From an uncultured Oscillospiraceae bacterium (GTDB lineage Bacteria; Bacillota; Clostridia; Oscillospirales; Oscillospiraceae), in contig CALWYL010000001.1 in the NCBI GenBank assembly GCA_944385765.1, positions 23,556 through 87,555 of the forward strand: DNA of 64,000 nt, read 5' to 3'. Positions 7,884-57,115 of the stretch are shown piece by piece (within the stretch, counting starts at the first letter, position 1; each line of letters starts with the position of its first letter). Made by a program: the position numbers and the translations under genes. The notes under the pieces are model-generated. The model was given only the letters and a program-made list of their open reading frames with translations, was not told the origin of the DNA and made no database searches.

Positions 7884-9032
7884 TTATATGCGTTTGTCGA
7901 GCGCATTTGCGTATCTCCGCCGGAACTCGCCAAAAGTCCCCCGCTCCAGCTCGTCCCTGATGCGCGCCATCAGGCTGTTGTAGAACCACAGGTTGTGCGT
8001 CACGGCGAAACGCATGGCCAGCATCTCCTCCGCCTTAAAGAGGTGGCGCAGATAGGCCCGGGAGTACCTGCGGCACACGGGGCAGGAGCACTGCGCGTCT
8101 ATGGGCCCCTCGTCGCGCTCATATTTGGCGTTCTTTATGTTGATTATGCCCTCCCAGGTGAAGAGATGTCCGTGGCGCCCGTTCCTGGCCGGCATCACGC
8201 AGTCGAAGAAGTCCACCCCGCGCATGACGCCCTCGATGATGTTCCCCGGCGTGCCCACGCCCATGAGATAGCGCGGCCTGTCCTGCGGCATATGCTCCTC
8301 CACGGCCTCTATGGTGTCGTACATCTCCTGGGTGCTCTCCCCCACGGCCAGTCCGCCTATGGCGTAGCCCGGCAGGTCCAGCTCGGCTATGCGCTGCATG
8401 TGCTCTATGCGCAGGTCGTGGAACACCGCGCCCTGGTTTATGCCGAACAGGACCTGACCCGGATTGACAGCGCCGGGCTCGGAGTTGTACTCGGCGAGGG
8501 CCGCCTTGCAGCGGGCCAGCCAGCGTGTCGTCCGCCCGCAGGATTGCTTTACATACTCATAGGGCGAGGGTATCTTTATGCACTCGTCAAAGGCCATGGC
8601 GATATCAGAGCCGAGGTTGGACTGTATCCTCATGCTCTCCTCCGGGCCCATGAAGATATGCCGCCCGTCCACATGCGAGTTGAAGCGCACGCCCTCCTCG
8701 CTGATTTTCCTCAGCTCCGCGAGGGAAAAAATCTGGAACCCCCCGCTGTCGGTGAGTATGGGCCCGTCCCAGGTCATGAACCGGTGCAGGCCTCCCAGCT
8801 CCTTTATCAGGGCGTCTCCCGGCCTCACATGCAGATGATAGGTGTTGGACAGCTCTATCTGGCAGCCTATCTCCCGCAGGTCCCGCGCCGAGAGGGCCCC
8901 CTTTATAGCGGCCTGAGTGCCCACATTCATGAAAACCGGCGTCTGCACCACTCCGTGCGGGCAGGTGAACTCCCCGCGCCTGGCGCGCCCCTCGGTCTTT
9001 ATCAGTCTGAACAAATTATCAACCCCGTTCAT
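7884..9032 (-). CDS. tgt: tRNA-guanine transglycosylase (queuine tRNA-ribosyltransferase)
   Basis: Motifs ARRGEFTCPHGVVQTPVFMNVGT, DSGGFQ, and Zn site CSCPVC...H. The start is uncertain (9032 ATG or 9071 TTG). Confidence 0.9.
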   Translation of the reverse strand: MNGVDNLFRLIKTEGRARRGEFTCPHGVVQTPVFMNVGTQAAIKGALSARDLREIGCQIELSNTYHLHVRPGDALIKELGGLHRFMTWDGPILTDSGGFQIFSLAELRKISEEGVRFNSHVDGRHIFMGPEESMRIQSNLGSDIAMAFDECIKIPSPYEYVKQSCGRTTRWLARCKAALAEYNSEPGAVNPGQVLFGINQGAVFHDLRIEHMQRIAELDLPGYAIGGLAVGESTQEMYDTIEAVEEHMPQDRPRYLMGVGTPGNIIEGVMRGVDFFDCVMPARNGRHGHLFTWEGIINIKNAKYERDEGPIDAQCSCPVCRRYSRAYLRHLFKAEEMLAMRFAVTHNLWFYNSLMARIRDELERGTFGEFRRRYANALDKRI

Positions 9033-9170
9033 TAAAAAGTCGCGGCGCAGCGGCCGCGGCTCTGCTGACAATTATATTGTATGCCGCTCAAAAGTCAACA
9101 TTAAATTCTTGTGGTTTCGCCGCGCCTGTGGTAAAATCAAACCAACACAATGTCTCCCGGGAGGAAAACG

Positions 9171-20232: not shown

Positions 20233-21255
20233 TCAGAGTATAAGGCAGCAGTCGCCGAAGGAGAAGAACCTGTACCTCTCCCTCACGGCCTCCTCATAGG
20301 CCCTCAGCACGTGCTCCCTGCCCGCGAAGGCGGAGATGAGCATGATGAGCGTGCTCTCCGGCAGATGGAAGTTGGTTATCAGCCCGTCCATGCACTTGAA
20401 GCGGTATCCGGGGTAGATGAAGATATCCGTCCAGCCGGAGCACGCGCTCAGCGTCCCGTCCTCGTGGGCAAAGCTCTCCACCGTGCGGCAGGAGGTGGTG
20501 CCCACGCAGATTACGCGTCCACCGGCGGCTTTTGTCTCGTTCACGGTCCTGGCCGTCTCCTCAGGTATGATGCAGAACTCGGAGTGCATCTCGTGCTCCT
20601 CCACCGTGTCCACCTTCACGGGCCTGAAAGTGCCCAGCCCCACATGCAGCGTCACGAAGCACTCCCTGACCCCCATCTCCTTCACCTTTTCCAGCAGCTC
20701 CGGGGTGAAGTGCAGCCCCGCCGTGGGCGCGGCCGCGCTGCCGAGCTCGCGGGAGTAGACGGTCTGATATCTCTCCCCGTCCTCCAGCTCCTCCTTGATG
20801 TAGGGGGGCAGGGGCATGCGCCCCAGCCTCTCCAGTATCTCCATGAAGATGCCCTCGTAGCTGAATTTGACAATCCTCTTGCCGCCCTCGCCCACGGAGA
20901 GCACCTCTCCCGCGAGCTCGCCGTCGCCGAAGTGGAGCCTGGCGCCGGGCTGCGTCTTGCGCCCCGGCTTGGTCAGGCACTCCCACTCCCCGCCGCCCAG
21001 GTCGCGCAGCAGCAGCACCTCCACGGCCCCGCCGCTCTCCCTGCGGCCCAGGAGCCTGGCCGGTATCACGCGCGAGTCGTTCATCACCAGGCAATCGCCC
21101 GGCCGGAGATACTCGCACAGCCTGTCGAAACTGCTGTGCCCTATGCTGCCGTCCTCGCGGCCCAAAACCAGCATGCGGGAGGCGTCGCGCCGCTCCAGCG
21201 GGGTCTGCGCTATCAGCTCCTGTGGAAGTTCATAGTAAAAGTCAGATGTTTTCAT
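20233..21255 (-). CDS. queA: S-adenosylmethionine:tRNA ribosyltransferase-isomerase
   Basis: [31 protein letters not shown]...PLPPYI...[10 protein letters not shown]. Confidence 0.95.
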
Positions 21256-52651: not shown

Positions 52652-53182
52652 TTACAGCAGGTATTCCAGCTGGCAGTCGAACGGCTCCCTCTCCACGTGG
52701 CCGCTCTCGTATTCCGCCGCCTCCACACAGCCCATTTTCGCGTAAAAGGCCTGTGTCTCCACGGCGGAGTGGGCGGAGATGTACAGCTTACGGGCCCCTC
52801 GCCCCCGCGCCCAGTCGGCGGCGGCCCGGAAGAGCTTCGCCCCGATTCCCCGCCCGCGCATGTCCTCCGACACGTGTATGCTCGAGAGGTCGAGATATTG
52901 CATCTCACTGCCAAACGGCTCCGGCTCCACGGACACGAAGCCTTTCAGAGCCATGTCGACGAAAGCGCCGTACACGAAGCCTCCGGTCCTCAGCGTGTTT
53001 TTCAGACACTCGAGCAAAAAGGCGCAGTCCTCCTCGCTCCAGTCGTCGATGAAGGGGTCCGGCCTCACGACCCAACGCCCGTTCTCCCGGCGCCGGCATA
53101 GGTCCACCACCTGCCGGCGCCGGAACTTCCCAAGTAGCTCCCGGCAGAGCTCCCCCTCTGTCAAAGTTCTATATACCTCCAT
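52652..53182 (-). CDS. GNAT family N-acetyltransferase
   Basis: VSEDMRGRGIGAKLF motif A. Confidence 0.75.
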   Translation of the reverse strand: MEVYRTLTEGELCRELLGKFRRRQVVDLCRRRENGRWVVRPDPFIDDWSEEDCAFLLECLKNTLRTGGFVYGAFVDMALKGFVSVEPEPFGSEMQYLDLSSIHVSEDMRGRGIGAKLFRAAADWARGRGARKLYISAHSAVETQAFYAKMGCVEAAEYESGHVEREPFDCQLEYLL

Positions 53183-53254: not shown

Positions 53255-53698
53255 TCACTCCACGGTGACGGTGCCGTCCTCAGCCACGGTTATCTGCATG
53301 CCGTCCTCAACATAGCTCAGGAACTCGTCGCCCAGCTGGTCCACCACCGGCATCTTGGCGTCCGTCCAGTTCGCCGCCAGGATGGCGCCGGAGGCCGCCA
53401 GGCTGTCTATGGTCATGGAAAACAGCAGGCAGGCGGGCTGGTTGTCCGTGGCACAGGCCGTGTACAGCACCATGCCTCCGGTGGTCGAGCCTATGGTCTG
53501 CGGCAGGCAGAGCGCCTTGCCTTTCATCGGTTTCTTATAGAGATCCGGGTTGTTCTGGTCGCCGCACTTGACCTTTTTGTCGCCGAACATCATGGCCATC
53601 TGGAAGCTGGCCAGCGTGTTGAATCCGCCGTGGGACACCAGGGCCTCCGCCGTGCAGTTCCCGGGCACCACGCTGCGTCCCTTGAAGCTCCTCGCCAT
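53255..53698 (-). CDS. aconitase X swivel-domain subunit (DUF126)
   Basis: 147 aa beginning MARSFKGRSVVPGNCTAEALVS...LPQTIGSTTGG. The ATG overlaps the stop of the upstream gene (TAATG). Confidence 0.7.
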   Translation of the reverse strand: MARSFKGRSVVPGNCTAEALVSHGGFNTLASFQMAMMFGDKKVKCGDQNNPDLYKKPMKGKALCLPQTIGSTTGGMVLYTACATDNQPACLLFSMTIDSLAASGAILAANWTDAKMPVVDQLGDEFLSYVEDGMQITVAEDGTVTVE

Positions 53699-54978
53699 TA
53701 CCTGACACCTCCCGTTATCATGCCGAGTATCTCGTCCTCTGTGTAATATCTCGCCGTCGTATAGGTGCGCAGCTTGTTCGAGCAGGTTATCACCGGCATC
53801 TTGCCGCTCAGGGGGTTGTTCATGTACATCAGCGGACAGATATACGAGAGTATGACACCCGTCTTTTCCAGCCGCGCTCCGTCCCAGCTGTTTGCGTACT
53901 CGCGGGCGATGGCGGGTGGGGCTGTCATCACAGTGGGCACCGTCACCTTCTCCAGCCCGTTCTTCTTCAGCGCTGCCTCTATCTTGTCCGTCCAGTCCTT
54001 CAGCTGCCCTTTGGTGAGGTGCGGGCAGCCTATAAAGCAGAGCTTGGGCTTTGCCCCCAGGTCCTTCCACACGCAGGGGTATCCCGCCTTTACGCGCTCC
54101 AGCTCGGCGTCGTCTATCACATAGACCTTGGCGCCCTCGCGTATCAGTCCCTCGCCCTGCTCCTTCGCCTCCGGCGTGAGGTTCTCTATGTGATAGAGCC
54201 CCACGGCCCCGTTGGAGGCCGTCGCCGCGCCGAAGTCCTTCAGATACGCGCAGTTTTCGTCGTTGAGCTCCGTGCCCAGCCACCTGTCGAGGCCCTTTAT
54301 GTACGGCACCTGCTCCATGACCTTCATGCCCACGGCGGAGCCCAGGAGCTGTGCCTCCGGCCTCTTCTCCGTGCGCACCTCAACCACCCAGTCCGCCCTC
54401 CTGCCGTCGTCCGTCAGCAGCCCGAAGTAGGGCACGCAGCCGGCGATGGAGCCCATCAGCTCTATCATGCCGGAGTTGCGGTTGCACCTGGCGCCGAGCA
54501 CGCTGTTGGCGTACACGACGGCTGAGCTCTCGGCCCAGGACAGCACCTCCCCTTTCTGCGGCCTGTTTCCCACCTCGTCCAGATAGCAGGCGCAAGTGTA
54601 GGCGTCCCCGTCCATGATGCCGAATTTCTTCAGCTGCTCCTCGTACCTCTTCTGCTGGGAGTACATTATCCCCTTGAAGATGATGTCCTGCAGCAAATTG
54701 GAGGGCACGTTCTTGTCCAGCGGCAGCGGGTCGGCTGAAAACTGCTGTTTGGGCAGCGCCCCGGCCGCTATCAGCTGGTCATAGAGATCGTACACCGGCT
54801 TCATCACGCCGATGCCGAAGCTTATAACCGTGTGCCCGTATTTGCTGGTCACGGGCACCATCTTCTCGGCCCCAAAGGTCTCGCCATACATCACCAGGGA
54901 GCGCATGACCTTGGCCATAACCTCTCCCTGCGCCCCGTCCAGCATGGCCTGCTGTTCGCTCGTGAGCTGCATAGCCAC
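53698..54978 (-). CDS. aconitase X catalytic-domain subunit (DUF521)
   Basis: LTSEQQAMLDGAQGEVMAKVMRSLV... A GTG start at 54978 lies 8 nt after AGGAGG. ATG 54972 is the alternative. Confidence 0.7.
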   Translation of the reverse strand: MAMQLTSEQQAMLDGAQGEVMAKVMRSLVMYGETFGAEKMVPVTSKYGHTVISFGIGVMKPVYDLYDQLIAAGALPKQQFSADPLPLDKNVPSNLLQDIIFKGIMYSQQKRYEEQLKKFGIMDGDAYTCACYLDEVGNRPQKGEVLSWAESSAVVYANSVLGARCNRNSGMIELMGSIAGCVPYFGLLTDDGRRADWVVEVRTEKRPEAQLLGSAVGMKVMEQVPYIKGLDRWLGTELNDENCAYLKDFGAATASNGAVGLYHIENLTPEAKEQGEGLIREGAKVYVIDDAELERVKAGYPCVWKDLGAKPKLCFIGCPHLTKGQLKDWTDKIEAALKKNGLEKVTVPTVMTAPPAIAREYANSWDGARLEKTGVILSYICPLMYMNNPLSGKMPVITCSNKLRTYTTARYYTEDEILGMITGGVR

Positions 54979-55023: not shown

Positions 55024-55052
55024 ATTTTACCACCCGCGCTGTTGAAAGTCAA
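55024..55052 (-). promoter_or_regulatory. sigma-A-type promoter for the acnX genes
   Basis: Minus strand: TTGACT, 17-nt spacer, TAAAAT. Confidence 0.5.
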
Positions 55053-55113: not shown

Positions 55114-56562
55114 TCACAGGCTCTCGCCGAAGTCCTCGCGGAACTTTTTGACCAGCTTCTGCTGCCAGTCGCTGGTGGCCTCCAGCCGCCCGAAGAAGAA
55201 GCGCAGGCTGCTGGGCTCCTCCACCCAGCGCAGTCCGCCAACCAGGTCGGCATTCTCGTGCAGCCAGGTGATGCGGTCCACGGCGTAGAGGACCTGTGAC
55301 ATGGTAAAGACCCTCCTGGGCAGCGCCAGGCGCAGCAGCTCCACGTCCGCTATGGGCTCCGTGCCGTCCGGTTCCCGCTGCTCGCTCAGGGTACCCCGCT
55401 CCATGCCGCGCACGCCGCCGGCCAGGTATACCGCCGCCGCCAGGGCGCCGGCCGGGTACTCGTGGTCGTCTATGTGCGGCAGGAACTCCCGGGCGTTCAG
55501 GTGGCAGCCCAGTCCGCCGGCCGGCGTCACTATGGGCACCCCCCGCTTCTGCAGCTCTCTGGCCATGAACTCGATGAATATGGGCCCCTGGGAAATCACG
55601 TCCTCGTCCATGGTCTCGTCCAGGCCCACAGTGATGGCCTCCATCTCGCGCACACTCATGCCGCCGTAGGTGAGGAAGCCCTCGAACATCGGCACCAGCT
55701 CTCTCATGTGCTCAAAGAACCTGCGGTCCCTCATGGCGATGCCGCCGCCGCGCGCGAAGCCGAACTTGCGGGCGGAGAAGTAGATGATGTCGAATTCGTC
55801 CGCCACCCTGCGCGTTATCTCGCGGATGGACATGTCGCGGCAGGCCGCCTCGCGGGTCTTGATGAAGTAGAGGTTGTCCTGCAGCAGGCTGGCGTCCAGC
55901 ACGGTGATTATGCCGTGCTCCCTGCATATCTCGCAGGCGTCGTGCATATTTTGCAGTGACAGCGGCTGTCCGCCTATCAGGTTGGTGCCCGCCTCTATGC
56001 GCATGAAGGGTATGCGCTCCGTGCCCGTCTCGGCGATGAACCTGCGCAGCTTGTCCAGGTCTATGTTGCCCTTGAAGGGGTCGTCGCTGGTGGTCTTTAT
56101 GCCCTCGTCCGTCACCAGCTCCGCCACCGTGCCCCCCTGCCGGGTGATGTGCGCTTTGGTCGTGGTGAAGTGGAAGTTCATCGGCACCACGTCGCCCGGC
56201 TTTACGAAGGCCACGGCCAGTATGTTCTCGCAGGCTCTGCCCTGGTGGGCCGGCAGGAAGAAATTCGTGCCGAATATCTCGTGCACCTTATCCTCCAGCC
56301 GGGTAAAGGTGGCGCTGCCGGCGTAGCTGTCGTCACAGACGAGCATGGCGGCCGTCTGGCGGTCGCTCATGGCGTTGACGCCGGAGTCGGTCAGCATGTC
56401 GAGAAAGATGTCCTTGTTTTTCAGCAGGAAGGTGTTGTTGCCCGCCTCGGTGATGGCCTCCAGCCGGCGCTCCACGGGGACCAGGTTCAGCTTCTGCACC
56501 ATGCGCACCTTGTGCAGCTCGAGGGGGATGTCCATACCGGTAAAGAATTTGATGTTCGCCAT
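55114..56562 (-). CDS. PLP-dependent beta-eliminating lyase, tyrosine phenol-lyase-like
   Basis: 482 aa, with GGAAAGGAG RBS. Motifs TFLLKNKDIFLDMLTDSGVNAMS, AHQGRACE, FHFTTT, PLP-Lys in YFSARKFG, and LRFFF near the C-terminus. Confidence 0.85.
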   Translation of the reverse strand: MANIKFFTGMDIPLELHKVRMVQKLNLVPVERRLEAITEAGNNTFLLKNKDIFLDMLTDSGVNAMSDRQTAAMLVCDDSYAGSATFTRLEDKVHEIFGTNFFLPAHQGRACENILAVAFVKPGDVVPMNFHFTTTKAHITRQGGTVAELVTDEGIKTTSDDPFKGNIDLDKLRRFIAETGTERIPFMRIEAGTNLIGGQPLSLQNMHDACEICREHGIITVLDASLLQDNLYFIKTREAACRDMSIREITRRVADEFDIIYFSARKFGFARGGGIAMRDRRFFEHMRELVPMFEGFLTYGGMSVREMEAITVGLDETMDEDVISQGPIFIEFMARELQKRGVPIVTPAGGLGCHLNAREFLPHIDDHEYPAGALAAAVYLAGGVRGMERGTLSEQREPDGTEPIADVELLRLALPRRVFTMSQVLYAVDRITWLHENADLVGGLRWVEEPSSLRFFFGRLEATSDWQQKLVKKFREDFGESL

Positions 56563-56624
56563 TTCAAAAGGCTCCTTTCCAGATTTAGCGGAGCCGTTTG
56601 GCGGCGGTTCCACCGGGTTTGAGG

Positions 56625-56930
56625 AAAACAAAAAACGCCCTCCTCTCCAGCAGAGGACGAGCGCCAAATCCCGTGTTACCACCTCAATTCACCGGCGTCT
56701 CACGGCGCCGGCCTTTTCGAGTGCGTCCGCCAGGGGCGGAGATACTCTATCTCTGTAACGGGAGAAACCCGGCCCGGCCTACCGGCGCCTTAGCGCTTTC
56801 GTGGGGCTGCTCCGGCGTGTATTCCCGGGCCGCGTCCTCGTGCCTTGCACCGACCGGCACTTCTCTGCAGGACCCGCGCGCATGCGCTCTCTCCCGGTAC
56901 TATTCCGCCATCATGGCAGTTGTTCGCTGT
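56625..56930 (-). promoter_or_regulatory. T-box leader (tRNA-sensing riboswitch), specifier UAC = Tyr
   Basis: Read on the minus strand. K-turn UGAUGG. Specifier loop AAUAGUA / GAA-UAC-A (codon at 56821..56819). AGAGA bulges. F-box CCGUUA (56761..56756). T-box AAUUGAGGUGGUAACACGGG (56689..56670). Terminator hairpin 56636-56664 followed by a U-run. Confidence 0.85.
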
Positions 56931-56942
56931 TCTGTTGTGTGC

Positions 56943-56971
56943 ATTATAACAGTTGCGCTTTAAATTGTCAA
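56943..56971 (-). promoter_or_regulatory. consensus sigma-A promoter of the T-box/lyase unit
   Basis: Minus strand: TTGACA (56971..56966), 17-nt spacer, TATAAT (56948..56943). Confidence 0.7.
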
Positions 56972-56991: not shown

Positions 56992-57018
56992 CAACAAAAA
57001 CAGCGGCCGTCCGGCCGC
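56992..57018 (-). terminator. terminator downstream of abrB
   Basis: Minus strand: GCGGCCG, loop ga, CGGCCGC, then TGTTTTTGTTG. Confidence 0.5.
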
Positions 57019-57115
57019 CTCATATTCGGTACATATCCACAAAAATTTGCCGCGCTCCCCCGCTGCCGGGTTGCATGCCCCCGGCAGCGTAAGGCGCGCG
57101 AGGGCTGACAAACCC

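Follow-up and report, generated by a model that had tools for sequence, protein, structure and literature searches.

Why should a gene from an enzyme family known only as catabolic stand behind a riboswitch that answers to a shortage of tyrosine? The question is raised by a locus in a 64,000-nucleotide stretch of DNA from an uncultured Oscillospiraceae bacterium (contig CALWYL010000001.1 of assembly GCA_944385765.1, positions 23,556 to 87,555; the whole stretch is called the window below, and positions are counted from its first letter). On its minus strand, a T-box leader RNA precedes a gene for a pyridoxal phosphate (PLP)-dependent beta-eliminating lyase of the tryptophanase (TnaA)/tyrosine phenol-lyase (TPL) family. 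T-boxes turn on genes for synthetases, for biosynthesis, and for transport in response to the uncharged form of their tRNA. For catabolic TPL and TnaA, the inducer is the substrate of the enzyme, acting through TyrR and TnaC, respectively, and the tnaC-tnaA arrangement is present in the annotated E. coli genome. We found that the T-box is almost certainly real and specific for tyrosine, that it is paired with the same kind of gene in many other genomes, and that the encoded proteins form a third clade of their family. That this pairing serves to make tyrosine from phenol under tyrosine starvation is, in our judgement, modestly probable.

A T-box leader with a tyrosine specifier precedes the lyase gene

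A preliminary description of the locus, made from the sequence alone, had listed a perfect promoter, a complete T-box leader, and a terminator on the minus strand. Direct sequence reading and computed coordinates placed every one of these elements where it had been described, between positions 56971 and 56625 (Table 1). The promoter is the best of five promoter-like sites in 5.1 kb (1.4 expected from shuffles) and the only one with a full score. The gene upstream, which is AbrB/MazE-like, has its own terminator (57019..57002), and the leader is therefore an independent transcription unit. At the other end of the leader, the covariance-model alignment and the fold both show that the 5' arm of the terminator overlaps the 3' arm of the antiterminator, the sequence in common being CUCGUCCUCU. 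Thermodynamic z-scores for Stem I alone were not significant in this GC-rich sequence. A match to D12-methyl RNA (RF02950; 57016..57089, minus strand), which overlaps the terminator of the AbrB/MazE-like gene, was set aside as a chance match (20.5 bits against a cut-off of 57, E = 0.29).

The Rfam T-box model RF00230 aligned end to end (1-219 of 219) to the leader with 77.3 bits (E = 6.6e-17), which is the sole RNA-family match in the window at E <= 0.01. A default-threshold Rfam scan of the window reported nothing, and the match appears with an E-value threshold. The alignment puts GAA-UAC-A exactly in the specifier slot, so that UAC and no other codon occupies this position, as the preliminary description had read it; the positional rule for the specifier follows the TBDB paper (PMC7778990). 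The hallmarks of Stem I, namely the kink-turn (K-turn), the specifier loop (AGUA ... GAA-codon-purine), and the distal AG bulge and loop, all align in register, and the antiterminator, which contains a UGGN bulge, competes with an intrinsic terminator. Bacterial tRNA-Tyr carries A73, and the combination of UAC and UGGU is consistent with this tRNA (anticodon GUA, A73). We found no tRNA genes in the window and no tRNA-Tyr gene in the 60 related loci scanned.

The score of the window leader is below the Rfam gathering cut-off of 93 bits because of GC-rich insertions, including one of 14 nt in Stem I that is common to close relatives. The orthologous leaders of 12 of 14 tested relatives score above the cut-off, at 93-125 bits, and on this sequence comparison the low score of the window leader is not decay. 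The predicted design is that of a switch that is off by default and on when uncharged tRNA binds.

The pairing of T-box and lyase is conserved in other genomes

The linkage described for the window recurs widely. Our scan, with one genome per species, covered 80 loci, whose lyases share 62-90% identity with the window protein; the closest loci are from Candidatus Scatomorpha and other Oscillospiraceae metagenome-assembled genomes (MAGs) of the chicken gut. The upstream region could be assessed in 78 loci, and 44 of these carry the T-box core GGUGGUA(A/U/C)CACG 77-321 nt upstream of the start codon. The GGUGGUA motif is present in 45/45 leaders, window included. All 44 related leaders have a UAC specifier and a UGGU bulge, with the specifier mostly in the context GAA-UAC-A, once in GAA-UAC-C, and in one group in CAAU-UAC-C. 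By their labels, the T-box loci come from Bacillota or from Izemoplasmatales, and the labels include Oscillospiraceae, Christensenellales, Clostridiaceae, Tepidanaerobacteraceae, and Caloramator; the one exception is L065, which is from a Bacteroidaceae-labelled bin.

For covariation in Stem I, 22 divergent leaders were aligned without supervision and folded with RNAalifold. This recovered the two helices that flank the specifier loop and two distal helices, with compensatory changes in 14/14 pairs, and UAC is invariant in the alignment (columns 103-105). Paired cells amount to 89.9%, against 66.4% in shuffles (0/500 reach the observed value) and at most 56% in slid registers. The invariant UAC and UGGU, together with the covariation of Stem I, all but exclude that the element is a chance match, has decayed, or reads a shifted specifier frame. 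The tyrosine specificity claimed in the preliminary description is thus supported by the covariance model, by all 44 related loci, and by the covariation of the flanking helices.

The remaining 34 of the 78 assessable loci have no T-box upstream: 25 are from Spirochaetes, four from Defluviitaleaceae, two from Bacteroidales, and one each from Coriobacteriia, Savagea, and a Clostridia MAG. No other known riboswitch was detected upstream of T-box-less clade members in the six representative loci tested.

Some further observations concern individual loci. The T-box-lyase unit of L065 is nearly identical to units of Clostridiales MAGs (the L061 group), which suggests a mis-binned contig rather than a Bacteroidota T-box. 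Locus L008 is labelled Erysipelotrichaceae. The flanks of three related loci contain other riboswitches, namely a second T-box in L015 (264..533, plus strand, 110.9 bits), an S-adenosylmethionine riboswitch in L011 (4307..4415, minus strand), and a thiamine pyrophosphate riboswitch in L052 (992..1103, minus strand). Cultured carriers include Caloramator quimbayensis USBA 833 (L052), whose T-box scores 125 bits and has a UAC specifier, as well as Pseudoflavonifractor sp. HCP28S3_F10 and Miniphocaeibacter massiliensis.

A tryptophan T-box and trpB adjoin the unit in Izemoplasmatales

In two Izemoplasmatales MAGs, a Trp T-box and a lone trpB lie immediately upstream of the Tyr T-box-lyase unit (L057, 4011..5528; L059, 2512..4032). 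These trpB-side T-boxes have the specifier context GAA-UGG-G and the bulge UGGC, which fits tRNA-Trp with G73, and they score 126-131 bits. The lone trpB genes match the equivalog TIGR00263 with 632 bits against a cut-off of 392; there is no trpA in the unit, and in L059 a major facilitator superfamily transporter follows trpB. A lone trpB converts indole and serine to tryptophan.

The preliminary description had argued that UGGU points to A73, as in tRNA-Tyr, and that tRNA-Trp would need UGGC. The two genomes uphold this logic: a lyase T-box with UAC and UGGU stands beside a Trp T-box with UGG and UGGC, which serves as an internal control for the discriminator argument. The adjoining units look like paired salvage modules, one for indole and one for phenol. 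An argument from auxotrophy in Izemoplasmatales was dropped, since one published study shows that biosynthetic capacity varies within the order.

The regulated enzyme belongs to a third clade of the TPL/TnaA family

The 482-aa window protein matches the Pfam family PF01212 (Beta_elim_lyase; E = 4e-47) and the broad "tryptophanase" subfamily model of NCBIfam, PRK13238 (575 bits). It falls far short of both equivalog models, scoring 429.6 bits against a cut-off of 720.7 for TPL (TIGR02618) and 330.6 bits against 825.8 for tryptophanase (TIGR02617). Among solved structures, TPLs match it best (E = 1e-105 to 1e-112), and tryptophanases come after them. We compared the protein with the TPL of Citrobacter freundii and with E. 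coli TnaA, taken from the annotated K-12 genome. Its identity is 39.6% to the former and 35.3% to the latter, compared with 43.2% between TPL and TnaA. The window protein is thus less like either enzyme than these are to one another, which makes it a deeper, third branch. The family assignment of the preliminary description therefore stands, and the gene proved to belong to a separate clade rather than to TPL proper. More than 100 homologues have 482 aa and the same start; a 522-aa open reading frame with a GTG start (55114..56682) that would reach into the leader was rejected, as the ATG at 56562 has a good ribosome-binding site and fits the uniform length of the homologues.

Residues were analysed in 76 clade sequences, including the window protein. 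The catalytic set Y71, R100, E103, N185, D214, K257 (the PLP lysine), and R404 is invariant (76/76). The phenol-pocket residues T124, M379, R381, and F448 are of the TPL type in 75-76 of the 76 sequences, and F449 of the TPL phenol pocket is also kept; at the columns of these four residues E. coli TnaA has D137, V394, I396, and H463. At three positions where TPL and TnaA agree, all clade members have another residue (E69D, R217L, and K256R). N262 is replaced by R in 74 sequences and by K in two, and M288 by F. From the TPL literature, we take R217 to be the partner of PLP O3', and K256 and E69 to belong to the cation site.

An exhaustive search of 1.84 billion cluster representatives returned 516 family members at E <= 1e-30. 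The clade corresponds to one full-length cluster at 50% identity and an archaeal sister at 47% identity, which has M217. Among 65 full-length family representatives, the set T124/M379/R381/F448 is confined to this clade and the canonical TPLs, and tryptophanase-type sequences have D/V/I-L/H. The homologue search with C. freundii TPL found only near-identical Citrobacter proteins; TPL-type representatives came from bacteria of the candidate phyla radiation and from Actinobacteria. The TPLs with which gut bacteria, Clostridia and Fusobacteria among them, produce phenol have 70-99% identity to the C. freundii enzyme (PMC6424909), and the clade, at about 40%, is thus a different entity. Among canonical TPLs of Firmicutes, that of Clostridium saccharolyticum is 70% identical to C. 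freundii TPL. Clade members are annotated "tryptophanase" in databases, a label that, to go by their residues, is probably wrong as to substrate.

The archaeal M217 sister group comprises Desulfurococcales and Acidilobaceae. A search from it found relatives of about 480 aa, 56-60% identical to this sister group, in WOR-3, Chloroflexota, Acetothermia/Bipolaricaulota, Aminicenantes, KSB1, and Bathyarchaeia, all annotated "tryptophanase"; the isolate Thermogladius sp. KZ2Tp1 is among these relatives. Ranking just below the clade are tandem two-domain tryptophanase/TPL-like proteins of about 850-930 aa (P0242-P0256), each domain of which is 33-37% identical to the window protein.

A candidate route from tyrosine shortage to tyrosine synthesis

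In the mechanism that we propose, transcription would start constitutively at the perfect promoter, and the leader of about 300 nt would fold as a T-box riboswitch, with the UAC specifier of Stem I reading the GUA anticodon of tRNA-Tyr. If this tRNA is uncharged, its free ACCA end would pair with the UGGU bulge and hold the antiterminator, allowing read-through into the lyase gene; if it is charged, the more stable terminator hairpin would form and transcription would stop at the U-run. A shortage of tyrosine would in this way turn the lyase gene on. The enzyme would then make L-tyrosine either from phenol, pyruvate, and ammonium, by the reverse of the TPL reaction, or from phenol and serine, by beta-replacement. 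This would amount to a one-enzyme salvage of tyrosine in phenol- and ammonia-rich anaerobic habitats. The replacement of the PLP O3' partner (R217L) and those in the region of the cation site (E69D, K256R, and N262R) may adapt the enzyme to synthesis.

The chemistry has precedent: TPL is reversible, and it is used in industry to make L-tyrosine and L-DOPA, the starting materials being pyruvate and ammonia together with phenol or catechol. Recorded targets of Tyr T-boxes comprise tyrS, NhaC-type transporters, the tyrosine biosynthesis operon, and phenylalanine hydroxylase (PMC2494555). We lean towards starvation-induced synthesis or salvage of tyrosine from phenol as the role of the window gene, with a likelihood that we put somewhat above even. 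The synthetic direction had been suggested in the preliminary description, and the direction and the substrates are still what we infer; this anabolic proposal is strengthened by the conservation of the phenol pocket, by the stand-alone position of the gene, and by the T-box(Trp)-trpB neighbour in two genomes.

Several observations weigh against it. By Rfam's curated threshold, the window leader lies outside RF00230. We found no characterised clade member in the searchable literature, and judging from the residues themselves, the replacements E69D, R217L, and K256R may mean that the chemistry of the clade differs from that of both TPL and TnaA. No phenol-generating or phenol-transport gene was linked to the lyase in about 90 neighbourhoods. 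In addition, the clade occurs without a T-box in Crenarchaeota and many candidate phyla, besides the Spirochaetes, Bacteroidales, Coriobacteriia, and Defluviitaleaceae, and the role of these T-box-less members could be catabolic.

Such a role could extend to the window gene if the T-box regulation is real and the enzyme is an ordinary catabolic TPL (tyrosine to phenol, pyruvate, and ammonium) whose T-box link serves another end, such as the gain of pyruvate and ammonia in general starvation. The relatives that have been characterised are all degradative, TPLs with the same phenol pocket and catalytic residues are the best structural matches, and peptide-fermenting anaerobes widely carry the clade, Thermogladius and Acidilobaceae among them; in these lineages there is no T-box and amino acid catabolism is plausible. 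Yet destroying tyrosine while tRNA-Tyr is uncharged would be self-defeating, and the known catabolic TPL and TnaA respond to their substrates. The invariance of UAC in 44 loci argues for selection on control by tyrosine starvation. Moreover, a T-box that induces the breakdown of its own amino acid is not known and appears in neither of the surveys checked (PMC2494555; PMC7778990), and the TPLs shown to produce phenol are, at 70-99% identity to the C. freundii enzyme, far from the clade. We regard an ordinary catabolic TPL as improbable. Only slightly less improbable, to our mind, is a different substrate or reaction: the enzyme might remove a tyrosine analogue that blocks the charging of tRNA-Tyr, or catalyse another PLP reaction by way of R217L, K256R, and E69D, and so relieve undercharging indirectly. 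The failure of both equivalog models, the replacement in every clade member of three residues that TPL and TnaA have in common, and the change that N262R brings to the cation-site region all fit this alternative. The residues that contact the phenol ring are invariant, however, which points to a 4-hydroxyphenyl substrate, and no partner genes hint at a more elaborate pathway.

A last alternative places the problem in the RNA, in that the window leader might be decayed or non-functional, or its specifier might be read in a shifted frame (AUA or ACA) and so match another tRNA. The score below the cut-off and the Stem I z-scores would agree with decay. Against it stand the full-length match, the intact hallmark motifs, the perfect promoter, the strong terminator, and the orthologues that score above the cut-off. 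As for a shifted frame, UAC is invariant while the loop position after it varies (A or C), the flanking helices covary, and UGGU fits the A73 of tRNA-Tyr, in contrast to UGGC in the neighbouring Trp T-boxes. We consider decay or a shifted frame very unlikely.

The lyase gene stands alone in its neighbourhoods

In the window, a GC-rich hairpin after the lyase stop codon probably ends a single-gene transcription unit, and a separate promoter lies downstream (Table 1). The next genes encode an aconitase-X-type (AcnX) dehydratase pair (53255..54978, minus strand), whose large subunit matches PF04412 (E = 2e-87) and whose swivel subunit matches PF01989. The pair falls well short of the cis-3-hydroxy-L-proline dehydratase equivalog, and the gene after it encodes a GNAT acetyltransferase (52652..53182). 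An operon of lyase and AcnX, which would have pointed to a pathway of several steps, was rejected because of the hairpin, because the AcnX and GNAT genes have a promoter of their own, and because no other locus has AcnX; relatives as close as 90% identity lack both AcnX and the GNAT gene.

The lyase gene stands alone at all loci, and the first downstream gene varies from locus to locus. Clustering the open reading frames of 81 loci gave no partner conserved beyond lineage level, and the archaeal, Acetothermia, and other contexts held no informative partner genes. Phenol-forming decarboxylases, chorismate lyase, transporters, and aro/tyr genes were likewise not conserved in the 81 loci or in the archaeal or candidate-phylum contexts. 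A de novo route from chorismate via 4-hydroxybenzoate and phenol to tyrosine was considered, and nothing in the neighbourhoods supports it.

Table 1. Features of the T-box-lyase locus in the window
Feature	Position	Strand	Basis or remark
Sigma-70 promoter, TTGACA, 17-nt spacer, extended -10 TGnTATAAT	56943..56971	-	score 12/12
-35 element TTGACA	56971..56966	-	
-10 element TATAAT, preceded by extended TG	56948..56943	-	
T-box leader RNA (Stem I, Stem II/IIA-B region, Stem III, antiterminator)	56650..56923	-	Rfam RF00230
Stem I (K-turn, specifier internal loop, AG bulge, distal loop)	56807..56919	-	expected architecture in fold
K-turn UGAUGG	56913..56908	-	
Specifier loop, 5' side, AAUAGUA	56904..56898	-	
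Two AGAGA motifs	56892..56888 and 56866..56862	-	
Specifier loop, 3' side, GAAUACA	56824..56818	-	
Specifier codon UAC (Tyr) in GAA-UAC-A	56821..56819	-	directly precedes closing helix CGCC/GGCG
F-box CCGUUA	56761..56756	-	
T-box sequence AAUUGAGGUGGUAACACGGG	56689..56670	-	within antiterminator
Acceptor bulge UGGU	56681..56678	-	pairs with tRNA 3' end ACCA (discriminator A73)
Intrinsic terminator hairpin GGCGCUCGUCCUCU...AGAGGAGGGCG	56665..56636	-	terminator scan; -18.8 kcal/mol, z = -2.6
U-run U6GU4 after terminator hairpin	56635..56625	-	
Ribosome-binding site GGAAAGGAG	56580..56572	-	
Lyase start codon ATG	56562	-	
Gene for 482-aa PLP-dependent beta-eliminating lyase, TPL-like third clade	55114..56562	-	
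GC-rich hairpin after lyase stop codon	55061..55088	-	read from sequence
Separate promoter TTGACT-17-TAAAAT downstream of lyase	55052..55024	-	

A few lineages have a close downstream neighbour. In the Bacteroidales MAGs L073 and L079, the lyase is followed after a gap of 1-4 nt by a membrane protein of about 240-250 aa that is DUF554-like by its N-terminus, and in the Coriobacteriia MAG L055 it is followed after 12 nt by a metA-like gene; these neighbours may be lineage-specific operon partners. Elsewhere in the window, the minus-strand genes at 7884..9071 and 20233..21255 look like tgt and queA by their N-terminal sequences. The queuosine pathway modifies G34 of the tRNAs for Tyr, His, Asn, and Asp, and the presence of these genes in the same window, 35-48 kb from the T-box, is probably coincidence.

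Significance and comparison with known systems

The riboswitch class and the enzyme superfamily are well known; what appears to be new is their pairing, its conservation across dozens of lineages, and the recognition of the target as a distinct third clade of TPL/TnaA. We found no mention in the searchable literature of a T-box paired with TPL or tryptophanase, an earlier listing in tabular form (Vitreschak et al. 2008, RegPrecise, TBDB) being possible, and neither the 2008 survey by Wels nor the TBDB paper (PMC7778990) mentions such a T-box target.

T-boxes report the purpose of a gene, as they turn it on when a specific amino acid is short, and this T-box therefore offers a functional prediction for a large, conserved, and apparently uncharacterised clade. 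A broader proposal, which we put forward tentatively and hold to be somewhat less probable than its opposite, is that the "tryptophanase" genes of about 480 aa in anaerobic Bacillota, Spirochaetes, candidate phyla, and Crenarchaeota encode a "tyrosine synthase". This would be a third TPL/TnaA branch, retuned by R217L, K256R, E69D, and N262R, that makes tyrosine in one step from environmental phenol and acts as a microbial phenol sink in guts and digesters. Thousands of sequences now carry the label "tryptophanase", a name that is almost certainly wrong as to substrate and possibly wrong as to direction.

If the clade does make tyrosine from phenol, nature would have a way to salvage tyrosine with a single enzyme, parallel to the salvage of indole by trpB, and predictions of tyrosine auxotrophy for gut and digester anaerobes would need revision. 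Phenol is the precursor of the uraemic toxin phenyl sulfate. Some of these organisms would be consumers of phenol and not producers, which bears on gut-derived phenyl sulfate and on the reading of metagenomes, in which genes for TPL/TnaA homologues are taken as evidence of toxin production. The clade would also supply TPL variants that are naturally tuned to synthesis for use in biocatalysis. Should the enzyme prove not to be anabolic, known T-box logic would gain a genuine exception in a T-box that turns on the breakdown of its own amino acid.

The closest known counterpart of the leader is the tyrS T-box of Bacillus subtilis, a class I transcriptional T-box (RF00230). Both have a Stem I with a K-turn, GAA-UAC-A, an AG bulge, and a distal loop platform, followed by the F-box, UGGU, and a competing antiterminator and terminator; tyrS is specific for tRNA-Tyr, as the window leader almost certainly is too. 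The window leader differs in its GC-rich Stem I insertion and its score below the Rfam cut-off, and above all in its target, which is neither a synthetase nor a biosynthetic operon nor a transporter but a gene of the tryptophanase/TPL family.

On the side of the enzyme, the TPL of C. freundii (EC 4.1.99.2, TIGR02618) shares the fold, the catalytic and phenol-pocket residues, and presumably the PLP chemistry. The clade is set apart from it by its 39.6% identity, by E69D, R217L, K256R, N262R, and M288F, and by about 25 additional residues; canonical TPL is induced by tyrosine, whereas the window gene is predicted to be induced by its shortage. TnaA of E. coli (EC 4.1.99.1, TIGR02617) belongs to the same superfamily, and the window protein has T, M, R, and F at the four ring-pocket columns where TnaA has D, V, I, and H. 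The nearest parallel in regulatory design is the T-box(Trp)-trpB unit of the two Izemoplasmatales MAGs, in which a single PLP enzyme likewise stands behind a T-box for an amino acid made from a free ring, with indole giving tryptophan there and phenol predicted to give tyrosine here. The two enzymes are unlike in that trpB encodes the beta subunit of tryptophan synthase, of fold type II, whose anabolic direction is established, whereas for the lyase that direction is predicted.

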